Part shown: positions 5,197 to 15,001 of the stretch, in pieces
Layout of the letters: each line of letters opens with the position of its first letter
How positions within the stretch are numbered: the stretch's first letter is position 1
NCBI GenBank assembly: GCA_964373715.1
Contig: CAYJVR010000001.1
Coordinates: 269,888-333,887, forward strand
DNA from: an uncultured Planctomycetia bacterium
GTDB lineage: Bacteria; Omnitrophota; Gorgyraeia; 1-14-0-20-64-10
Direction of reading: 5' to 3'
Length of the DNA stretch: 64,000 bases
Translations under genes and position numbers: made by a program
Notes under the pieces: model-generated
Databases searched by the model: none
What the model was told of the DNA's origin: nothing
What the model saw: only the letters and a program-made list of their open reading frames with translations

Positions 5197-6192
5197 TTAT
5201 TTTTCTCCGCGAAGGTACTTGGCGGCGACTTCGGGAGGCGTTGGGTTAACGTAGAACCCCGATCCCCATTCAAACCCAGCAACGCGGGTTAACCGGGGCA
5301 TGAGCTCAATATGCCAATGATACCCCTCCGGCGGCGTTGCCGCAAGGGGGGATGTGTGGATCATAAAATTATAGGAGGGGTTACGGAGGACTTCCTTGAT
5401 CCGGATCAGGACCTGGCGCAGCGCTTCACCGGTCTCTTTCAGCAATTTCGGGGGGGAGGCGGCGAAGTCGGCCGCGTGCTTTTTCGGGATGAGCCACAGT
5501 TCGAACGGGAACCGGGAGGCGAACGGGGCGAAACAGAGGATCTCCGGCGTTTCCAGCACCACCCTGGACCGTTCGGAGGTTTCCTGCCGGATCATTTCGC
5601 AGAAGACGCAGCGCTGGTTCTGTTCATAATATCGGTCGGCCCCCCGGATCTCTTCCATTACTCGTTTGGGGACGATCGGCAGCGCGATCAGCTGGCAGTG
5701 ACTGTGGCTTAAAGAGGCGCCTGCCGAGGCTCCGTGGTTTTTAAAAATCAGAAGGTATTTGAACCGTTTGTCTTTGCGCAGATCAATCGACCGCTCCTGA
5801 AACGCGCGCATCAGCAGCTCCATCTGCTCAGGCTGGAGGTCGGCCAGATCTTTCGAATGATCGGGTGTCTCGACGATTACTTCGTGGGCCCCGACGCCGT
5901 TCATCAGGTCGTAGATGCCGGCGCCGGTCCGGTCCAGATCACCTTCTATCCTTAAAGCCGGGAATCTGTTAGGGAATATCCTGAGCGACCAGGAAGGGTC
6001 ATTTGCCTGCCCTCCCTTGGGGCGGACCGCCGCGATCTCAGGCGGGGTCATCTGCTCGCTTCCGGGACAGAAGGGGCATGAGTCGGTCCCTTTTTTACGG
6101 GGTTCCGGTTCGAAGTCGGCGGGAGACATCGGGTTGTCGGTGGAGACGATCACCCATCTGTAAACTGCCGAATCCATACGGATTTCCGCCAT
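5197..6192 (-). CDS. galT: galactose-1-phosphate uridylyltransferase family protein (HIT superfamily, GalT class I), paralog 1
   Basis: Motifs CPFCPG (zinc site), FKNHG, HSHCQ (H-x-H-x-Q) and FPFELWLIPKKH plus C-terminal AGFEWGSGFY. The tool ORF (to 6324) adds an Arg/Ser-rich artefactual extension; the start was moved to MAEIRM at 6192, which has an AGGAGG SD. Confidence 0.75.
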   Translation of the reverse strand: MAEIRMDSAVYRWVIVSTDNPMSPADFEPEPRKKGTDSCPFCPGSEQMTPPEIAAVRPKGGQANDPSWSLRIFPNRFPALRIEGDLDRTGAGIYDLMNGVGAHEVIVETPDHSKDLADLQPEQMELLMRAFQERSIDLRKDKRFKYLLIFKNHGASAGASLSHSHCQLIALPIVPKRVMEEIRGADRYYEQNQRCVFCEMIRQETSERSRVVLETPEILCFAPFASRFPFELWLIPKKHAADFAASPPKLLKETGEALRQVLIRIKEVLRNPSYNFMIHTSPLAATPPEGYHWHIELMPRLTRVAGFEWGSGFYVNPTPPEVAAKYLRGEK

Positions 6193-6211
6193 GCTTTTTA
6201 AGGCCTCCTTT

Positions 6212-7279
6212 TTACGCGAGTCCCGCCGAGGGATGGACGGCGACCGTCTCTTTTGCCTCTCTGAGGAAGTGGGCCGCCTCTTCCGGGGTGAACGGGTTGA
6301 TATAAAAGCCGGATCCCCATTCAAAGCCCGCCACGCGGGTCAGCCTGGGCATTATTTCGATGTGCCAGTGGAAATCCTCGTCAACCGTCCTCCAGTAGCC
6401 GGGTTTCACGGGCCGCCTGAACGGAGCGGTGTGGATGATGTAATTCAGCGGCGGATCGTTTAAAACCTTGGACAGTTTTGAGAAGGCGGTTTTCATCATA
6501 CGGGCCAGGTCATCCCGGTGTTCCGGCGACAAGGTTGTGAAATCGGCGGCGTGGAGTTTAGGAAGTATCCAGAGTTCGAACGGGAACCGGGAAGCGAAAG
6601 GGGTCAGTGCCACGAAGTAGGGGGTTTCGGCCGCGATCCGTTCCTGCGAGTCGAACTCTTGCCGGAGCATGTCGCAGAGAACGCACCGCTCCTTCATCTC
6701 GAAATAGGCCCGCGCTCCCCGGAGTTCTTCCCTGACCCGGATCGGATTGATCGGCAGTGCGATCAGCTGGGACCGGCAGTGCCGGAATTGGCCTTCCCCT
6801 GCCGCCTGGCCGTGGTTTTTGAACAGGAGCACGTATCTGAAACGGGGGTCCTTTTCCAGGTCCGTGATTCTCTCGATGTAGACATTAATGATCTGCCGGA
6901 TCTGCGTTTCCGGCAGATCGGTCAGGGAACTGACATGGGAGGGACTCTCGATCACGATTTCATGGGCGCCGATCCCGCTGGTAATTTCGTAGATCCCCTG
7001 TTTTTCCTGTTTCAGGTCCCCTTCTATCCTGAGGACCGGGGCGATGGAGGGGACGACCCGCACGTTCCAGCCCGGGCTGTTCGGCCTGCTGCCGGCGGGA
7101 CGTATGGCCCTGATCTCAGGAGAGGTTTTTGCCTCATGACCTTCGCAGAACGGGCAGTCCTCCTGGGGCGGTTCCTGTTCCGGAGTTTCCAAGTCGAGGA
7201 ATTCGTCCGGCCGCTTTGCTCTTTCGGTCGAGATAATGACCCATCTGCCGACCAGAGGATCCTTCCGAAGTTCAGGCAT
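6212..7279 (-). CDS. GalT-family (HIT) uridylyltransferase-like protein, paralog 2, with altered H-x-H-x-Q motif
   Basis: About 50% identical to paralog 1 (CPFCEG, FKNHG, FPFELWILPKLH, AGFEWGSGFY), but the catalytic signature reads FRHCRSQ instead of H-x-H-x-Q. The start was chosen at MPELRKDPLVGRW (7279); the tool ORF extends to 7363 and overlaps fmt. Confidence 0.7.
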   Translation of the reverse strand: MPELRKDPLVGRWVIISTERAKRPDEFLDLETPEQEPPQEDCPFCEGHEAKTSPEIRAIRPAGSRPNSPGWNVRVVPSIAPVLRIEGDLKQEKQGIYEITSGIGAHEIVIESPSHVSSLTDLPETQIRQIINVYIERITDLEKDPRFRYVLLFKNHGQAAGEGQFRHCRSQLIALPINPIRVREELRGARAYFEMKERCVLCDMLRQEFDSQERIAAETPYFVALTPFASRFPFELWILPKLHAADFTTLSPEHRDDLARMMKTAFSKLSKVLNDPPLNYIIHTAPFRRPVKPGYWRTVDEDFHWHIEIMPRLTRVAGFEWGSGFYINPFTPEEAAHFLREAKETVAVHPSAGLA

Positions 7280-7286
7280 GGGGGTA

Positions 7287-8243
7287 TTATAGGCTTTGTT
7301 TCGGACGGGTAAAGGATGTTCCGGCCGGCAACCGGTGACCTCGGAGAAAGCTTTCGGTATCAAGAGCTTTCCCTCCTTCCATCTGGAGCCGGTCTATCCT
7401 CAGCTGGCCTGAGCTTGTTTGCACCCAGAGGCCGTGCACTGCGTCCGCCGAAACAATGGCGCCCGGCTTTTTACCGGCAGCGTTGCGGGAGGCGTCCGGA
7501 AATGTCTCGAAGAGTTTCAGGAGCTTTCCTTCCGATTCGGTCATGGCGCCCGGCCATGGTTGGAGGCCGCGGACCCTGTTATGGATCGCCGTGCAATCCT
7601 CCTCCCACCGGATGATGCCGTCCTCTTTTTTGAGCGGCGGCGCGGCCGTGGCGGCGTCGTCATTTTGGGCATGAAGATGGGCCTGGCCGTTATCGAGCAG
7701 TTCTAGGGCGTCCACGAGAGCCCGAGCTCCTACCGTTGAGAGCAGGTGGCTTAAGGTTGCGGCGTTGTCCTGCGGGTCGATTTTGTGATGCATCTGAAGA
7801 AGGATTGGCCCGTGATCGAGCTGGTCGTCGAGACGGAAGATCGTGACCCCGGTTTCCTGCTCTCCGCGGATCAGCGCCCATTGGATCGGGGCCGCCCCCC
7901 TGAATTTCGGGAGGAGGGAGGGGTGGAGGTTGACCGCACCTTTCGGGAAAACCGCCAACAGGGGGGGCGGAAGGATCCGGCCGTAGGCGACCACCACTGC
8001 GCATTCGGGACGCAAGGCGCGTATGGATTGGAGGAAATTTTCATCCCCCGGGTCTTTCGGTTGAAAGACCTGAATCCCGGCCGCACAAGCCGCTTCTTTG
8101 ACCGCCGGATGGACAGGTTCTTTCGCCCGCTTTTTGGGGCGGTCCGGCTGCGTGACCACGGCCGCCACCTCGTGGGCGGCTTCCAGGACCTGCTGCAGGC
8201 TTGGGACCGCAAATTCTGGTGTTCCGAAAAAAATAATGCGCAT
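7287..8243 (-). CDS. fmt: methionyl-tRNA formyltransferase
   Basis: MRIIFFGTPEFAVPSL N-terminus and HPSLLPKFRGAAPIQWA motif; upstream partner def. Confidence 0.9.
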   Translation of the reverse strand: MRIIFFGTPEFAVPSLQQVLEAAHEVAAVVTQPDRPKKRAKEPVHPAVKEAACAAGIQVFQPKDPGDENFLQSIRALRPECAVVVAYGRILPPPLLAVFPKGAVNLHPSLLPKFRGAAPIQWALIRGEQETGVTIFRLDDQLDHGPILLQMHHKIDPQDNAATLSHLLSTVGARALVDALELLDNGQAHLHAQNDDAATAAPPLKKEDGIIRWEEDCTAIHNRVRGLQPWPGAMTESEGKLLKLFETFPDASRNAAGKKPGAIVSADAVHGLWVQTSSGQLRIDRLQMEGGKALDTESFLRGHRLPAGTSFTRPKQSL

Positions 8244-10813: not shown

Positions 10814-11558
10814 CGGGCTTGTCCTGAGCTTGCCGAATGGGTCTGCCGAGTATCTTGAGGACCTGTTTCAGGTCTTCCCAGGTCTCCGTCTTCGCTGCGG
10901 GATTCCGCAGCAGGTAGGCGGGATGGAAGGTAGCCACGAGAGAGATTCCCTTCCAATCGAAAACGGTGCCGCGGAGTTTTCCCATCGGCGCGTCGATCCC
11001 CAAGAGATTGGTGATGGCTGTTTTTCCGAGCGCGCAGATCACCTTCGGGCGGATCGTGGTCAGCTGTGCCTCCAGGTAGGGATGGCAGGCGGCCACCTCA
11101 TCCGGTTCGGGGACCCGGTTCATCGGCGGACGGCACTTCACGATGTTGCAGATGTAAACTTGTTCCCGTTCGAAGCCCATCGCTTTGATCATCCGGTTGA
11201 GCAGTTCTCCCGCCCGGCCGACGAACGGCCTTCCCTGCATGTCTTCATCCCTGCCCGGGCCTTCTCCGACGAAGACGATCTCTGCATCCAATGAGCCTTC
11301 CCCCCAGACGACCGAATTCCTGCCCTGCGCCAGCTTGCAAGCTTGGCAGGAGAGGGCTTTCTGCCGCAAAGGTTCGAGGGCGGCCGCTTTGCCGGAGGAG
11401 TCCAGCGCCGTCTCGTTTTGAGCCGCTGTTTTTTCCCGGGAGGAAGGGACCATCGTGATTCCGAAATCCTGGCTGGTTTTCAGCAGCCGACGGGTCTGGC
11501 CGATGACTCCATCGAGTTCTTGACGCGGATCCGATTTTTTTGTCTCTTCTCTGTTCAT
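10800..11558 (-). CDS. uracil-DNA glycosylase, family 4
   Basis: GEGPGRDEDMQGRPFVGRAGELL and HPAYLLR motifs. The start was set at the ATG (11558) that overlaps the upstream stop as ATGA; the longer tool ORF adds a basic extension. Confidence 0.8.
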   Translation of the reverse strand: MNREETKKSDPRQELDGVIGQTRRLLKTSQDFGITMVPSSREKTAAQNETALDSSGKAAALEPLRQKALSCQACKLAQGRNSVVWGEGSLDAEIVFVGEGPGRDEDMQGRPFVGRAGELLNRMIKAMGFEREQVYICNIVKCRPPMNRVPEPDEVAACHPYLEAQLTTIRPKVICALGKTAITNLLGIDAPMGKLRGTVFDWKGISLVATFHPAYLLRNPAAKTETWEDLKQVLKILGRPIRQAQDKPDAGG

Positions 11559-12667
11559 GGGACGACCAGTTTTGTGATCTGTTCGGCCGCGTGAGGGAGG
11601 CCGTGTTCCCGGGCTTTCTGCCGCATCTTGAGGAGTATTTCGGGATCGTTCCTGAGTTGTTGGATGATGCGCGGGATTTCGGGGACGCTTTTTGCCCACA
11701 AGGCGGCTCCCAGCTGCGTGATGATTTCGGCGTTGCGCGTTTCCTGTCCCGGGATTGGGGCGACAAGCACAAGAGGCACCCCCTTGACCAGGGCTTCCGT
11801 GCAGGTGAGCCCCCCCGCTTTTGATATGACGAGATCCGAAACCCCCATCAGCTCGTCCATGTTGTTGACAAAACCGTAAATTCGCATCATGTGCTTGACT
11901 GAAGGCCGCAGGGATTCCAGTTTCCGGAAAAGGCTGTCATTTTTTCCGACTACGATGAGCAGCTGCAGTGAATCAGACAGGGCCGCCAAGGAGTTTACGA
12001 GCGAGACAATCGGGCCTGTGCCGGCTCCCCCAGAGCCGATGAGGACTGTGAATTTTTTCTGGTCCAACCCGAGCCGCTGAATCAGTTCAGGCCTGTTTCC
12101 GTCGCTCTGGAATTTCGGGTCCACGGGGATGCCGAGGAGATGAATCTTTTCTGCCGGAACACGGCGCACGATCAGTTCCTCTTTGGCCTGAGGGGAAGCC
12201 ACCACATAGGCGTCAATACCGGGCGTCATCCACAGTGCGTGGGGCATGTAGTCGGTGACAACGGTGATCAGGCGCGCCCGTATCTTGCCCTCGGACTTCA
12301 GCCGGCCGGCCACCTCCATCGGGAAAAAATGGGTTCCGATGACCACGTCCGGATTTGTTTCCATAAGGTACTTTTCAAAATAGTTCCCATGGAGCCGGTT
12401 GCTCATTCGGTGTATCCAGCCGACGATGCCGCTGAAGGTTTTGATGTCGGTCAGGTGGTATGCCAGCCCCCAGAGGAACGGTGCCTGCTGGATCAGGCGC
12501 AGGTATCCTTTCGTGAAACTCCAGCGGTAAAGAGCGTTTGTCCCCATCAGGGCGTCCCAGACGATGATCTCGGCCGAGGAGCGGCGGTCGTGAAACGACG
12601 CGCCGATTGCCTCCGCCGCCCTTTGGTGGCCCGCTCCGGCGGGTACGTGGACGACGAGGATTTTCAT
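11555..12667 (-). CDS. diacylglycerol glycosyltransferase, MGDG-synthase/UgtP-like (GT28 family)
   Basis: N-terminus MKILVVHVPAGAGHQRAAEAI and C-terminal GT28 region (GGAG…GVPLVLVAPIPGQE). Start taken at MKIL. Confidence 0.65.
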   Translation of the reverse strand: MKILVVHVPAGAGHQRAAEAIGASFHDRRSSAEIIVWDALMGTNALYRWSFTKGYLRLIQQAPFLWGLAYHLTDIKTFSGIVGWIHRMSNRLHGNYFEKYLMETNPDVVIGTHFFPMEVAGRLKSEGKIRARLITVVTDYMPHALWMTPGIDAYVVASPQAKEELIVRRVPAEKIHLLGIPVDPKFQSDGNRPELIQRLGLDQKKFTVLIGSGGAGTGPIVSLVNSLAALSDSLQLLIVVGKNDSLFRKLESLRPSVKHMMRIYGFVNNMDELMGVSDLVISKAGGLTCTEALVKGVPLVLVAPIPGQETRNAEIITQLGAALWAKSVPEIPRIIQQLRNDPEILLKMRQKAREHGLPHAAEQITKLVVP

Positions 12668-13272
12668 GGGAGCTCTCTGAGTATCCATCCTGCGGCCGCC
12701 CGGAGGTCCTTGGCGATCCGGTCCGGCTGGACCGACAGGTGTTTCGCACTGGACCGGTTGTGTCTTCCGGAGAGCACGAGGATCTTCCCGCAGCCTGCCG
12801 AACGGGCCATGAGAATGTCCACTTCGGAATCTCCGATGACGTAAGAGCGCTTGAGGTCAATGCCGAACCGTTTTACGGCTTTCCGGATCATGCCGGTACG
12901 GGGCTTCCGGCAGCTGCAGTTCCGGTCGGGATGATGCGTGCAGTAATAGACGGCGTGGATTTTTCCGCCCACGCGGCGTATCGCTGTAAGCATCCGCCGG
13001 CTGACTTCATTCAGCTGCGGCTTCGACATGACCCCCCGCCCCACGCCCGATTGATTGGAAACGATCACCAGTGTCACCTCATGGCGGCTTAATACCCGGA
13101 TTGCCTGAAGAGATCCCGGAACAAACCGGAATTCCTCCCACCGCGTAATGTAACGGTGTTCGGGCGGTTCATTGATGACGCCGTCCCTGTCGAGAAAAAC
13201 GGCCGGTTTTTTATATCTTCTTTTGGTCGTCAAGAATTTCCCAGACTTTGGCCCATTTAAGGAAATGGACAA
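12664..13272 (-). CDS. gmhB: D-glycero-beta-D-manno-heptose 1,7-bisphosphate 7-phosphatase (HAD-IIIA)
   Basis: FLDRDGVIN motif, SNQSGVGRG, CxH…CxC zinc site (CTHHPDRNCSCRKP) and VIGDS. Confidence 0.75.
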   Translation of the reverse strand: MSISLNGPKSGKFLTTKRRYKKPAVFLDRDGVINEPPEHRYITRWEEFRFVPGSLQAIRVLSRHEVTLVIVSNQSGVGRGVMSKPQLNEVSRRMLTAIRRVGGKIHAVYYCTHHPDRNCSCRKPRTGMIRKAVKRFGIDLKRSYVIGDSEVDILMARSAGCGKILVLSGRHNRSSAKHLSVQPDRIAKDLRAAAGWILRELP

Positions 13273-15001
13273 ATGCGTAGAGGCCGGAAAAGATCAGGCC
13301 GGCCATCCCTTCCCGGAAACCTTGTTTTTTAACGTACATCTTCCAGAAAAGCTTGACCGGTTTCGCCGTGGTCTGCCGCCAGATGGTTTCCATGGAGATG
13401 GCCGGATTGCTTTCCACCAGCTGCCGGGCCTCGAGAGAGGTGTACCGGTTTTGGCGCTCGATGAACTCCTCCAGAGATCGGAACGGGTAATGTTCCACCC
13501 CTGCTTGGAGTGTGCCGATGCGTCCTTCAACAAGCAGTTTCTCGTGGACCCTGCCTTCATATCGGGCCTTCCCCCGGTAGAAAAGGTGGAGCGACTGGTG
13601 GTCCCATCCGCCGAAGCGCATCCACCGCCCTAAGAAATTATTTTTTCGGCGGAACTTATAGGCCGCGTACGGTTCCGGCGCGCGAGGGAGTTTTTCGAGT
13701 GTTTTTCGGAACGCGCCGGTGACCACTTCATCCGCGTCGAGTTGGAGGACCCAGTCTCCGTTGGCCGCGGCAGCGCCAGCATTCCGGAGGCGGCCGAAAT
13801 CATCTTTGGTTTCGTCCGTCAGTATCTTGGCGCCGGCTTTTTTGCAGATTTCCACTGTCGCGTCGGTGGAGCCTCCGTCCACAATGACGATTTCATCCAC
13901 CCATCGGACTGATTCGAGGCAGTTCCCGATCGTTTGCGCGGCGTTCTTCGAGAGGATCACCGCGGATATTCGGGATTTTCCTGCTGCGGGTCTGGTCTGG
14001 GTGTAAGGATCACCCAACCACTTCTTCCGGCCGGTTCCCGGCCACTCCTCGGTTGCTGTCTCTTTGTGCGTTGTTGGCGACTGGGGAGACTGCCCCCCTG
14101 CCACCTGCTCTCCAGCGTCACCCGCAGCTTTTCCGCGAGGCGCTCCGTTGGCGACAGGACCCGCTTCGGAAGAGGCGCTATTCTTCGCGTGCCAGTATTT
14201 GGCGAAACTGAGGAACTGGTAAGCCCCGCCGAACACCGAGATCATGTAACCTAAAAAACCCTCTTCCTTCCCCTTTTTCAGCCAGTAGCTCCGGTAAAAC
14301 CTGTCGATTGTCCTCCAGAGGGCTTTGCCGGTCGGCATCTTCCTGCCGTCCATGACCCATTTTTGCGTTTCAAGGGTGGTTTGCCTGTTCAGTTTGCCTA
14401 TGAAGTCGCCGATGTCCCTGTAGGAGTAGTGGATCAGGTCTCCCTGCAGTTTTCCCCACGGCTTGTCCGATATGGCCCTGGGATGGACGGTGGTCTCCTC
14501 CCACCGGAAGACGGCCGGCTTGAACAATTTCACCTGCGGGCTGGGGTACCACCCTCCGCGCTGGATCCAATGTTTCCCGAGGTAGTTCCGGCGGGGGACG
14601 GTGTAGATTTCGTTTGCCGGGTTTCCCGAAAACAAGCCCTTGATCTCCTGTGCTAGTTCGGGCGTGACCCTTTCGTCGGAATCAAGGCTGAAAACCCACT
14701 CATGTTTTGCCTGGGTGTGCGCCCAGTTCCGGTGGCGGCCCTCAATGTCCATTTTCCGTTTTAAGACCCGCGCCCCGAGTGATTCTGCGATTTCCGCCGT
14801 CCGGTCGGCGCTGTCGTCGTCAATTACGAGCAGTTCATCCGCCCATTCGGCCGATTTCAGGCAGTCCGCGATCCGGGCAGCCTCGTTCTTCGCCAGCACG
14901 ACGACGGAGACAGGGAGCTTTTGAGATATCAGGAGAATTCTCCCAGATTTCTCTCGCGGCTGACCGGAACGCGGCGGAGTTGTTGAGCCCACCGGATCCA
15001 C
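13211..15001 (-). CDS. bidomain glycosyltransferase: two GT2 (GT-A) domains in one polypeptide
   Basis: Domain 1 VSVVVLAKNEA…LLVIDDDSADRT; domain 2 ISAVILSKNAA…IVIVDGGSTDAT. They are separated by a Pro/Ala/Gly-rich linker. Confidence 0.7.
   Translation of the reverse strand: MDPVGSTTPPRSGQPREKSGRILLISQKLPVSVVVLAKNEAARIADCLKSAEWADELLVIDDDSADRTAEIAESLGARVLKRKMDIEGRHRNWAHTQAKHEWVFSLDSDERVTPELAQEIKGLFSGNPANEIYTVPRRNYLGKHWIQRGGWYPSPQVKLFKPAVFRWEETTVHPRAISDKPWGKLQGDLIHYSYRDIGDFIGKLNRQTTLETQKWVMDGRKMPTGKALWRTIDRFYRSYWLKKGKEEGFLGYMISVFGGAYQFLSFAKYWHAKNSASSEAGPVANGAPRGKAAGDAGEQVAGGQSPQSPTTHKETATEEWPGTGRKKWLGDPYTQTRPAAGKSRISAVILSKNAAQTIGNCLESVRWVDEIVIVDGGSTDATVEICKKAGAKILTDETKDDFGRLRNAGAAAANGDWVLQLDADEVVTGAFRKTLEKLPRAPEPYAAYKFRRKNNFLGRWMRFGGWDHQSLHLFYRGKARYEGRVHEKLLVEGRIGTLQAGVEHYPFRSLEEFIERQNRYTSLEARQLVESNPAISMETIWRQTTAKPVKLFWKMYVKKQGFREGMAGLIFSGLYAFVHFLKWAKVWEILDDQKKI

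Follow-up and report, generated by a model that had tools for sequence, protein, structure and literature searches.

Complementary losses of active-site elements in adjacent GalT-like paralogues of Omnitrophota suggest a heterodimer with one active site

We describe two adjacent genes whose products belong to the GalT branch and have lost different parts of the active site. Judged from their sequences, they probably encode the two subunits of an obligate heterodimeric nucleotidyl-transferase/phosphorylase, nearest to the At5g18200 ADP-glucose phosphorylase type, with one active site. The genes lie on the minus strand of a 64,000-nucleotide stretch of Omnitrophota DNA, analysed as a whole and hereafter called the window. 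We refer to the predicted catalytic paralogue as A and to the predicted non-catalytic one as B (copy 1 and copy 2, respectively, of an earlier note on this DNA). Our argument starts from the observed sequence states of A and B and their conservation, from synteny, from natural fusions and from the glycogen context of relatives; a physical heterodimer, a single live site and a substrate are what we infer.

Results

Two GalT-like paralogues precede gap-pgk-tpiA-secG

Gene B runs from 7279 to 6215 on the minus strand (TAA stop at 6214-6212) and encodes a GalT/At5g18200-like protein of 355 amino acids; gene A runs from 6192 to 5200 on the same strand (stop at 5199-5197) and encodes 331 amino acids. 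The proteins are 48% identical over 343 columns (BLASTP, E = 2e-120), in agreement with the earlier description of two GalT-like genes of about 50% identity. The 19-nt spacer between them that was also described there, AAAGGAGGCCTTAAAAAGC (6193..6211, minus strand), contains AGGAGG, the ribosome-binding site for A. The co-directional genes def (8774-8256) and fmt (8243-7287) lie upstream of B, with 7 nt between the fmt stop and the B start and a sigma-70-like sequence, a consensus match only, at 7313-7286. Downstream of A, also co-directional, are gap (5120-4074), pgk (4105-2897), tpiA (2892-2098) and secG (2113-1709), with a terminator-like hairpin 3' of secG (1681-1664). We found no minus-strand terminator-like site within the B-A or A-gap intergenic spacers, and the sole other minus-strand match (5092-5076) is internal to the gap coding region. 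The earlier note had placed the pair after the glycolytic operon; on the minus strand the pair instead precedes it, and the transcriptional order is def, fmt, B, A, gap, pgk, tpiA, secG.

The 3' ends of A and B had also been noted to retain nucleotide similarity, and we measured 67-69% identity there vs 57% gene-wide, a consequence of the 77-80% amino-acid identity in this region. Recent gene conversion was considered as a source of this similarity and rejected, as third-codon-position identity among identical residues is no higher at the 3' ends (0.43-0.50) than gene-wide (0.55).

The nucleophile histidine is replaced by arginine in B

The nucleophile motif of A is H163-S-H165-C-Q167 (CAC AGT CAC TGC CAG; 5692..5706, minus strand; context SLSHSHCQLIALP), in which His165 is the predicted nucleotidyl-accepting nucleophile. 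The corresponding motif of B is H167-C-R169-S-Q171 (CAC TGC CGG TCC CAG; 6767..6781, minus strand; context GQFRHCRSQLIALP). In this motif His167 aligns with the zinc-ligand histidine (E. coli GalT H164, At5g18200 H184), and Arg169, encoded at 6773-6775, occupies the position of the nucleophile (E. coli H166, At5g18200 H186). BLASTP, HMMER against At5g18200 and the archaeal GalT 6K5Z, and a 140-sequence MAFFT alignment including E. coli GalT all agreed on this placement, and none put a histidine at the nucleophile position of B. The suggestion that the second histidine of copy 2 has been replaced is thus borne out.

This difference extends across the family. H-x-H-x-Q is kept in all 56 A-lineage sequences, and the nucleophile histidine is present in 56/56 A and 18/18 single-copy outgroup sequences vs 4/56 of the B lineage, where the position is otherwise Arg (51) or Lys (1). 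Histidine was likewise absent from 114 of the 120 closest homologues, nearly all of which have Arg or Lys instead, and the Ser-Gln that follows the B arginine is almost invariant. The 355-residue B protein is identical in independent assemblies of ERR4904390, ERR4904392 and ERR4904393, and neither alternative reading frame at the motif contains HxHxQ. Together with the family-wide conservation of the change, these results exclude a sequencing error or frameshift at this site.

B could be thought catalytically active if its actual nucleophile were His167 and two residues had been inserted ahead of the glutamine, or if the sequence were in error. Both genes do share CAC TGC C, and an alignment HC--Q / HCRSQ can be drawn. 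Beyond the agreement of assemblies, frames and homologues, however, the family-wide spacing H-x-[RK]-S-Q-L-I-A equals that of the canonical H-x-H-x-Q-L-I-A, the one extra B residue is located upstream of the motif, and using His167 as the nucleophile would also remove the zinc-ligand histidine. As B also lacks the alpha-phosphate serine and the nucleotide loop (below), we regard an active B as already contradicted and very improbable.

Four B genes (L008, L009, L019 and L054) do carry histidine at the nucleophile position; they are nested inside the Arg clade of a plain neighbour-joining tree that was built without support values. A fifth, L033, combines histidine at this position with a Gln-to-Glu change. 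All five retain the degenerate nucleotide loop. We count these His-bearing genes, along with a B-like gene that has no A neighbour (P0132, L090), as points against the heterodimer.

A and B have lost different elements of the active site

We compared the remaining active-site positions in 56 A, 56 B and 18 single-copy outgroup genes. The N-terminal arm of B, R20-A-K-R-P24 (7208..7222, minus strand; R28..R31 in E. coli GalT, R48..R51 in the human enzyme), is intact and is predicted to act in trans on the A site. The equivalent region of A, S17-T-D-N-P-M-S-P24 (6121..6144, minus strand), is a degenerate form of S-T-E-R-A-K-R-P. The first arm arginine (E. coli R28) is present in 55/56 B and 18/18 outgroup sequences, and is also kept by At5g18200 and E. 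coli GalT; only 3/56 A sequences have it. H-x-H-x-Q is retained in copy 1 as the earlier note stated, but without the conserved trans-acting R-A-K-R-P arm this protein is not fully canonical. The second arm position is Lys or Arg in about half of the A sequences, so A homodimers might retain activity.

The losses of B lie elsewhere and go beyond the nucleophile, to which the earlier note had confined them. Its nucleotide loop, P77-S-I-A-P-V-L83 (7031..7051, minus strand), is degenerate relative to the canonical P-N-K-F-P-A-L (T-N-D-F-A-A-L in E. coli), and the loop of A, P74-N-R-F-P-A-L80 (5953..5973, minus strand), is an intact example of the P-N-[KR]-F-P-A-L found in that lineage. The loop asparagine (E. 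coli N77) occurs in 56/56 A and 2/56 B sequences, the loop aromatic residue (E. coli F79) in 56/56 and 1/56, and the alpha-phosphate serine (E. coli S161) in 56/56 and 7/56. At the serine position B has Gly163 and an inserted residue, an insertion found only in B.

Other elements are shared. The C-terminal loop, which binds hexose and acts in trans in GalT, reads T-R-V-A-G-F-E-W-G-S-G-F-Y in both B (T314 to Y326; 6302..6340, minus strand) and A (T302 to Y314; 5251..5289, minus strand). The zinc-ligand histidine, the asparagine of FKN and the motif glutamine are retained in A, B and the outgroup, and the predicted structural zinc site (C39, C42, H103 and H163 in A; C42, C45, H106 and H167 in B) is invariant or nearly so in both lineages.

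The lost elements would meet in one site of an A:B dimer

We took residue roles from human GALT papers and a 2026 preprint. In human GALT, Arg48 is a residue of "the opposite chain" and the hexose site is shared, Gln188 and Asn173 coming from one chain and the C-terminal loop from its partner; in the E. coli enzyme, R28, R31, G159 and S161 contact UDP-glucose (PMC5081055). Simulated intersubunit contacts (R48A-F99B, H47A-P100B, S45A-A101B and D98A-R51B, where the last letter gives the chain; PMC8513031) indicate that each arm packs against the nucleotide loop of the partner chain. By this geometry the lost arm of A and the lost loop of B would come together in the same site. An A:B dimer would then hold all lost elements in one site and all retained ones in the other.

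Each of the two active sites of the family dimer is built from both chains, with the nucleotide loop, alpha-phosphate serine and H-x-H-x-Q of one chain contributed in cis and the N-terminal R-x-x-R arm and C-terminal hexose loop of its partner in trans. We propose that an old duplication in Omnitrophota was followed by complementary decay: the arm would have disappeared from A, where the cis elements persisted, and B would have retained its arm and C-terminal loop while its cis elements decayed, with the nucleophile replaced by Arg, Ser by Gly plus one inserted residue, and P-N-K-F-P-A-L by P-S-I-A-P-x-L. The A:B dimer would have one complete site, formed by A in cis and B in trans, where His165 of A would accept a nucleotidyl group from an NDP-glucose, probably ADP-glucose. 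This group would then be passed to phosphate or a sugar phosphate, or the reaction may run in reverse. The other site, of B in cis and A in trans, would be a dead one with a lining of basic residues.

A and B are coupled in Omnitrophota and fused in three proteins

The order fmt-B-A-gap was found at every Omnitrophota locus with enough flanking sequence (about 56 genomes). The median distance from the B stop to the A start is 1 nt, and 41 of 59 distances fall between -8 and +3. Both genes are under strong purifying selection (dN/dS 0.03-0.09, similar to gap), and mean pairwise identity is higher for B (0.64) than for A (0.59). These values exclude B as a decaying pseudogene.

We also found three natural B-A fusion proteins in three assemblies, with mutual identities of 52-56%; the two whose loci we looked up lie directly upstream of gap-pgk-tpi-secG. 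Their B module retains an invariant ERAKRPNDF arm and the loop AGFEWGTG.YINPT, and its CxxC, nucleotide loop and HxHxQ are all gone. Their A module begins at CPFC without an arm and keeps PNKFPAL and AGASLEHPHTQ. MAFFT aligned single-module homologues to the N-terminal arm and second module of the fusions only. An AF2 model of the fusion P0121, made as a heterodimer proxy from a three-sequence alignment, had a mean pLDDT of 32 and was not used as evidence.

These data bear on two other readings. One is that A and B act separately, A as an ordinary homodimeric enzyme and B as a neofunctionalised homodimer (a binding protein or a non-covalent enzyme). Such a role for B would fit its strong purifying selection and its retention of the zinc site, the FKN asparagine, the glutamine and the C-terminal half; other family members also lack the nucleophile, with Y, V, I, S, C or L in its place, and the B-like gene mentioned above has no adjacent A. 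An ordinary A enzyme, however, would have to work without an arm arginine kept by all 18 single-copy relatives, At5g18200 and E. coli GalT. The losses of the two proteins are moreover complementary and map to one interface, and the tight coupling of the genes and the fusion proteins also speak for joint action. We consider separate function unlikely. The earlier note had offered a heteromeric or a neofunctionalised enzyme, and it is the heteromeric option that is favoured by synteny, complementary losses and fusions, with a stand-alone copy 2 the less likely of the two.

In the other reading a heterodimer forms and B is mainly regulatory: the dead site, now a basic pocket, would bind some phosphorylated effector (phosphate, for example, or an intermediate of glycolysis) and so adjust the activity of the live one, much as GlgD acts with GlgC or the large subunit in plant ADP-glucose pyrophosphorylase. 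Basic residues specific to B are strongly conserved. The inserted position is Arg in 28/56 B sequences (Arg or Lys in 32/56), the position before the zinc histidine is Lys or Arg in 41/56 B vs Glu in 51/56 A sequences, and the nucleophile position is Arg or Lys in 52/56; the nearly invariant Ser-Gln and the fixed location of the pair directly upstream of gap-pgk-tpi point the same way. Against this, the entire cis half of B, including the motif, has been erased in the fusion lineage with the gene still in place, which makes the basic pocket dispensable at least there, and the ligand of the pocket cannot be inferred from sequence. A chiefly regulatory B seems doubtful to us. Within the site-completing heterodimer that we prefer, B may still do more than complete the site of A: its H-x-[RK]-S-Q and its basic loop show far more conservation than a site that is simply empty would call for.

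Family placement and genomic context point to ADP-glucose

A matched PF01087 with 58 bits, above the cutoff, and PF02744 with 28.7 bits, just below the 29.2-bit cutoff; B exceeded the cutoff for both (49 and 38 bits, respectively). These profiles, together with the fold match of an AF2 model of B, give the pair the two-half HIT-like fold of the GalT branch of the HIT superfamily. The best sequence match in the PDB was At5g18200 (1Z84; E = 3e-72 for B and 8e-69 for A), far ahead of E. coli GalT (about 1e-24 for B and 3e-21 for A). The AF2 model of B alone, of moderate confidence (pLDDT 68) and used for fold assignment only, also matched 1Z84/2H39 best (E = 3e-26, Foldseek TM 0.78 on the target). 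Its low-pLDDT regions (the N-terminal arm, 80-103, 156-163, 291-300, 314-327 and the C-terminal tail 345-355) are mostly interface or active-site elements. Over the whole protein, the GalT equivalog NF008724 scored 125 and 135 bits, far under its cutoff of 448, and TIGR00209 scored 110.7 and 111.3 bits, just over its cutoff of 102.1. The closest characterised homologue, At5g18200, is not a UDP-hexose GalT. Public annotation of B genes varies among GalT, DUF4921 and DUF4931.

GlgA genes, GH57 genes or both are found next to single-copy relatives or a short distance away, and some of these relatives are fused to GlgA (P0157) or to GH57 (P0166, P0216). This context, with the At5g18200 match, supports the ADP-glucose-phosphorylase-like affinity that the earlier note had proposed by way of example, as far as sequence comparison can. 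Two observations count against it. The glycogen cluster of one relative also encodes an NTP-transferase/PGM fusion, so that any direction and role given for the reaction are tentative, and no glycogen gene (GlgA, GH57 or PGM) was found in the window by a targeted search and a Pfam scan of 40 of the larger ORFs. galK, galE and galM are also absent from the vicinity of the pair, whose neighbours are fmt and gap. The scanned ORFs at 11.5-62 kb are surface-glycan biosynthesis genes, except for two without a Pfam match.

A more speculative extension, to which we give little weight, is that the family supplies glycogen synthase with ADP-glucose independently of GlgC (glucose-1-phosphate + ADP -> ADP-glucose + phosphate) and that in Omnitrophota it became an asymmetric heterodimer. 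Its dead, Arg-lined site would sense some phosphorylated metabolite of glycolysis and in this way link the flux of storage glucan to the lower part of that pathway. Such coupling, if true, would explain why the pair is fixed before gap-pgk-tpi.

Discussion

If the proposed heterodimer is correct, A and B would be a clean, phylum-wide bacterial example of complementary degeneration after duplication, in which a homodimer gave rise to an obligate heterodimer that has a live and a dead site. An independent natural control would be available in the fusion proteins, and the pair would give a direct handle on the cis and trans elements of GalT-type sites. The glycogen clusters and the GlgA and GH57 fusions also point to an alpha-glucan role for bacterial At5g18200-like enzymes; the available portion of a recent comprehensive review of prokaryotic alpha-glucan enzymes makes no mention of one. 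In the literature on DUF4921/DUF4931, HIT pseudoenzymes and GalT-like genes in glycogen clusters we found no such pair.

To our knowledge, every GalT-branch member described so far is a homodimer in which both chains are identical and carry the full set of elements; this holds also for human GALT, which is defective in galactosaemia. At5g18200 (PDB 1Z84, 2H39) shares with A and B the two-half HIT fold, the Cys-x-x-Cys/His/His zinc site and the FKNxG...HxHxQ region, at a family identity of about 37% for A and 40% for B. Each chain of the At5g18200 homodimer carries the arm (R41..R44), the loop and the nucleophile, whereas here, as known from sequence, these are split over two genes. The class I enzymes (E. 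coli GalT and human GALT) share the fold, the logic of the motif, sites that span the dimer interface, and a trans arginine arm and C-terminal loop, but are only about 26% identical, and there is no gal operon context here.

The catalytic and non-catalytic paralogues GlgC and GlgD, encoded by adjacent genes in Firmicutes, and the small and large subunits of plant ADP-glucose pyrophosphorylase also act in ADP-glucose and glycogen metabolism. They differ from A and B in having another fold, in catalysing a pyrophosphorylase reaction without a covalent intermediate, and in that the non-catalytic subunit is regulatory rather than site-completing. In the avian pair Hint and Asw (HINTW), Asw is a HIT-superfamily paralogue without the catalytic motif that is proposed to form a heterodimer with active Hint; this pair is eukaryotic and of the Hint rather than the GalT branch, and Asw is proposed to be a dominant-negative inhibitor, not a site-completing subunit.

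The evolutionary logic that we propose for A and B is that of the trypanosomatid enzymes deoxyhypusine synthase and AdoMetDC/prozyme, in which, according to the available parts of the reports, an impaired catalytic paralogue has a catalytically dead partner and the hetero-oligomer is needed for activity (PMC3663545, PMC5201418). Those pairs differ from A and B in having unrelated folds and in being eukaryotic and encoded by non-adjacent genes, and their interaction and activation have been shown experimentally.

Gene order and family assignment

The two GalT-like paralogs lie in a co-directional minus-strand run that is transcribed in the order def (8774-8256), fmt (8243-7287), gene B (7279-6212, 355 aa), gene A (6192-5197, 331 aa), gap (5120-4074), pgk, tpiA and secG, the last of which ends at 1709. 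A terminator-like hairpin is present 3' of secG, and we found no minus-strand terminator-like site in either the B-A or the A-gap spacer. An earlier note had placed the pair after the glycolytic operon; in transcription order, B-A instead precedes gap-pgk-tpiA-secG. That note correctly described two GalT-like genes of about 50% identity (48% by BLASTP, E = 2e-120) separated by a 19-nt spacer containing AGGAGG. A sigma-70-like match (TTTACC, 16 nt, TATAAT; 7286-7313, minus strand) lies within the fmt 3' end, a short distance 5' of the B start. The region contains 4 such matches versus 2.0 ± 1.4 in shuffled sequence, an excess that is not clear.

Both A and B matched the Pfam GalT N- and C-terminal domains and DUF4921/DUF4931, with the C-terminal match of A just under the cutoff, and both scored far under the cutoff for the Leloir GalT equivalog NF008724. 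The best solved relative, by far, is the Arabidopsis ADP-glucose phosphorylase At5g18200 (E = 3e-72 for B and 8e-69 for A, compared with about 1e-24 and 3e-21, respectively, for E. coli GalT), and its structures 1Z84/2H39 are the best match to the predicted structure of B (pLDDT 68). Fold and zinc site place A and B in the GalT branch. The host phylum is Omnitrophota, whose MAGs are the source of all of the closest homologues and syntenic loci. Residues 294-300 of B (6380-6400) belong to an approximately 8-residue segment, G-Y-W-x-T-[IV], that precedes an H-W-H motif; this segment is common to B and single-copy relatives and absent from the A lineage, At5g18200 and E. coli GalT.

Nucleophile substitution in B

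Within the HxHxQ motif, B His167 aligns with the zinc-ligand His (E. coli GalT H164) and B Arg169 aligns with the nucleophile (E. coli GalT H166, At5g18200 H186). BLASTP, HMMER against At5g18200 and 6K5Z, and a 140-sequence alignment including E. coli GalT were concordant in this placement, confirming the proposal that the second His is replaced in this copy; the single extra residue of B lies upstream of the motif. A sequencing error or frameshift masking an intact motif, also raised previously, is rejected: three sequencing runs yielded the identical B protein on assembly, and none of the alternative reading frames restored HxHxQ. The nucleophile His is absent in 114 of the 120 closest B homologues (59-75% identical), which nearly always contain H-x-[RK]-S-Q. 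The dN/dS of B is 0.03-0.09, with A and gap in the same range, and B shows greater conservation than A (mean pairwise identity 0.64 vs 0.59) and is closer to single-copy relatives (0.55 vs 0.51). We conclude that the nucleophile substitution in B is real and old.

A small Omnitrophota subclade (loci L008, L009, L019 and L054; B gene at about 6001-7032) has His at this position (H-A-H-S-Q). Its B genes nevertheless carry the inserted residue, and their loop is the degenerate P-S-[VI]-S-P. This subclade is nested within the Arg clade in a neighbor-joining tree without support values, and its His may represent a reversion. The B motif of another locus, L033, is H-A-H-S-E.

Complementary losses in A and B

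We compared alignment columns across 56 A genes, 56 B genes and, as outgroups, 18 single-copy genes representing Anaerolineae, Nitrospirota, Margulisiibacteriota/WOR-1, Aerophobetes and Auribacterota, among other groups. The single-copy genes contain an N-terminal arm, S-T-E-R-x-[KR]-R-P (first Arg in 18/18), a nucleotide loop, P-N-K-[FY]-P-A-L (14/18; P-S-K-[FY]-P-V-L in four Nitrospirota genes), and the motif region A-G-A-S-L-x-H-x-H-S-Q. The B lineage keeps the arm (first Arg in 55/56), its nucleotide loop reads P-S-I-A-P-x-L (Asn in 2/56, an aromatic residue in 1/56), and its motif region has Gly in place of Ser (Ser in 7/56), a B-specific inserted residue that is often Arg, and Arg or Lys as the nucleophile replacement in 52/56. 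The A lineage keeps the nucleotide loop, the Ser and both His residues in 56/56 genes and has lost the arm (first Arg in 3/56; S-T-D-N-P-M-S-P in the window), the equivalents of which are conserved in At5g18200 (R41..R44), E. coli GalT (R28..R31) and human GALT (R48..R51). A and B have in common their zinc ligands, the FKN Asn, the Gln and, toward the C-terminus, the AGFEWG[ST]GFY loop. The earlier view of A as the intact copy holds for HxHxQ, Ser and the nucleotide loop and fails for the arm, so A is itself defective, at another place than B. Judged from sequence, one defining feature set has failed in each copy: the nucleophile, nucleotide loop and Ser in B, and the arm, which acts in trans, in A.

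Both active sites of a GalT-family dimer are built from both chains. In human GALT, one chain contributes its C-terminal loop (K334...Q346) to the hexose-phosphate site and the other chain contributes Gln188 and Asn173, and Arg48 is on "the opposite chain" relative to Gln188; in E. coli GalT, R28, R31, G159 and S161 contact UDP-glucose (PMC5081055). Simulations identified stable intersubunit contacts (R48A-F99B, H47A-P100B, S45A-A101B) and a salt bridge (D98A-R51B) (PMC8513031), indicating direct packing of each arm against the nucleotide loop (N97-D98-F99-P100-A101) of the partner chain. By homology, the intact arm and C-terminal loop of B would complete the intact cis elements of A, and the degenerate arm of A would face the degenerate loop and Arg-substituted motif of B. 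An A:B dimer would then carry all of the damage in one site and none in the other, an A:A dimer would miss the arm at both sites, and a B:B dimer would miss the nucleophile at both. This complementarity points to a heterodimer. Conservation of the basic H-x-R-S-Q loop in B suggests more than an empty site, and B could be a regulatory subunit of this heterodimer, a role that we consider unlikely.

Synteny, coupling and natural fusions

All Omnitrophota loci with sufficient flanking sequence, from about 56 species-level genomes, show the order fmt-B-A-gap, which is usually preceded by priA and def and followed by pgk-tpi-secG. In other phyla, the single-copy genes are neighbored by neither A nor gap. 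The distance from B stop to A start has a median of 1 nt and is -8 to +3 in 41/59 cases, a near-zero spacing that is typical of co-translated subunits.

Three natural fusions (596-599 aa, mutually 52-56% identical, from three assemblies) each contain a B module and an A module. The two fusion loci examined are both directly upstream of gap-pgk-tpi-secG, and this lineage has phosphoglucomutase three genes upstream. In the B module, the arm M-S-E-L-R-K...V-E-R-A-K-R-P-N-D-F and the loop A-G-F-E-W-G-T-G-x-Y-I-N-P-T are both invariant; Cys-x-x-Cys, the nucleotide loop and the HxHxQ region in its entirety have been lost. The A module starts at C-P-F-C, entirely without an arm, and keeps P-N-K-F-P-A-L and A-G-A-S-L-E-H-[PS]-H-T-Q; its C-terminal loop varies among the three. 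This pattern matches the prediction if B were needed only for trans elements and A only for cis elements. As genomic evidence, the fusions, synteny and B-A coupling are independent support for a probable heterodimer. The earlier suggestion of a heteromeric or neofunctionalised, ADP-glucose-phosphorylase-like enzyme is thus supported as to heteromery by complementary losses, synteny and fusions, and At5g18200 is the best match.

A more degenerate B (P0144) occurs in the same synteny and is again followed by an A gene, whose C-terminal loop has decayed. At locus L090, a B-like gene after fmt (1704-2708, P0132) has a kept arm, a degenerate loop and the motif H-C-S-S-R; no A gene was found in the 6.7 kb of this locus that the analysis covered, and the downstream genes are on the opposite strand. 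L090 is either an exception to B-A pairing or a rearranged locus. P0126 (871 aa) has a long N-terminal low-complexity stretch followed by two canonical GalT-like modules in tandem, both with H-x-H-S-Q. Of the best 150 representatives (P0121-P0270), about a third deviate at one or more of three signatures: the arm, the nucleotide loop and the nucleophile (with Y, V, I, S, C, L or R among the replacements of the last). A number of these entries are partial matches or truncated proteins. Degenerate paralogs may be more widespread than the A-B pair and seem to have arisen repeatedly in the wider family.

Probable function and alpha-glucan context

By analogy with At5g18200, A-B would catalyze ping-pong nucleotidyl transfer via His-NMP, and the acceptor would be either phosphate or a sugar phosphate. 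A Margulisiibacteriota cluster (L087) encodes GH57, GH57 glucanotransferase-like, GalT-like, CBM48, DUF4912, GH57 branching enzyme, NTP-transferase/PGM fusion and GlgA proteins. The 820-aa fusion of a sugar-phosphate NTP-transferase to phosphoglucomutase (10869-13331), in a cluster with three GH57 genes, indicates that a pyrophosphorylase and a HIT-type enzyme coexist there. GlgA comes directly after a Syntrophomonadaceae GalT-like gene, and an Auribacterota locus has the order glgA, GalT-like, GH57. Canonical GalT-like/At5g18200-like domains are also fused to GlgA (P0157, 814 aa) and to GH57 (P0166, 875 aa; P0216, 858 aa); P0179 (436 aa) has a truncated GH57 remnant. The context of single-copy relatives and these fusions tie the bacterial At5g18200-like family to alpha-glucan metabolism.

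Glycogen synthesis is reported as encoded by Omnitrophota MAGs (PMC8542988). We found no glycogen genes in the window, and the A-B pair is fixed in front of lower glycolysis genes. The window also contains an almost unbroken co-directional surface-glycan block of about 50 kb (11555-61687, minus strand), with many GT2/GT4/GT9 glycosyltransferases, an O-antigen ligase (Wzy_C), three PMT_2 proteins, several epimerases/dehydratases, asparagine synthase, capsule-synthesis proteins and five SAM methyltransferases. A nonulosonic-acid-like set at 54.6-61.7 kb comprises NeuB, a class-III aminotransferase, GNAT and HisH/HisF-like genes, one pair separate and one fused.

No GalT-branch enzyme that is heteromeric or contains a pseudoenzyme was described in the available portions of the literature searched. 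GlgC/GlgD is an arrangement similar to A-B. Trypanosomatid deoxyhypusine synthase and AdoMetDC/prozyme likewise pair an impaired enzyme with a dead paralog (PMC3663545, PMC5201418). The folds of the trypanosomatid pairs and of GlgC/GlgD differ from that of A-B.
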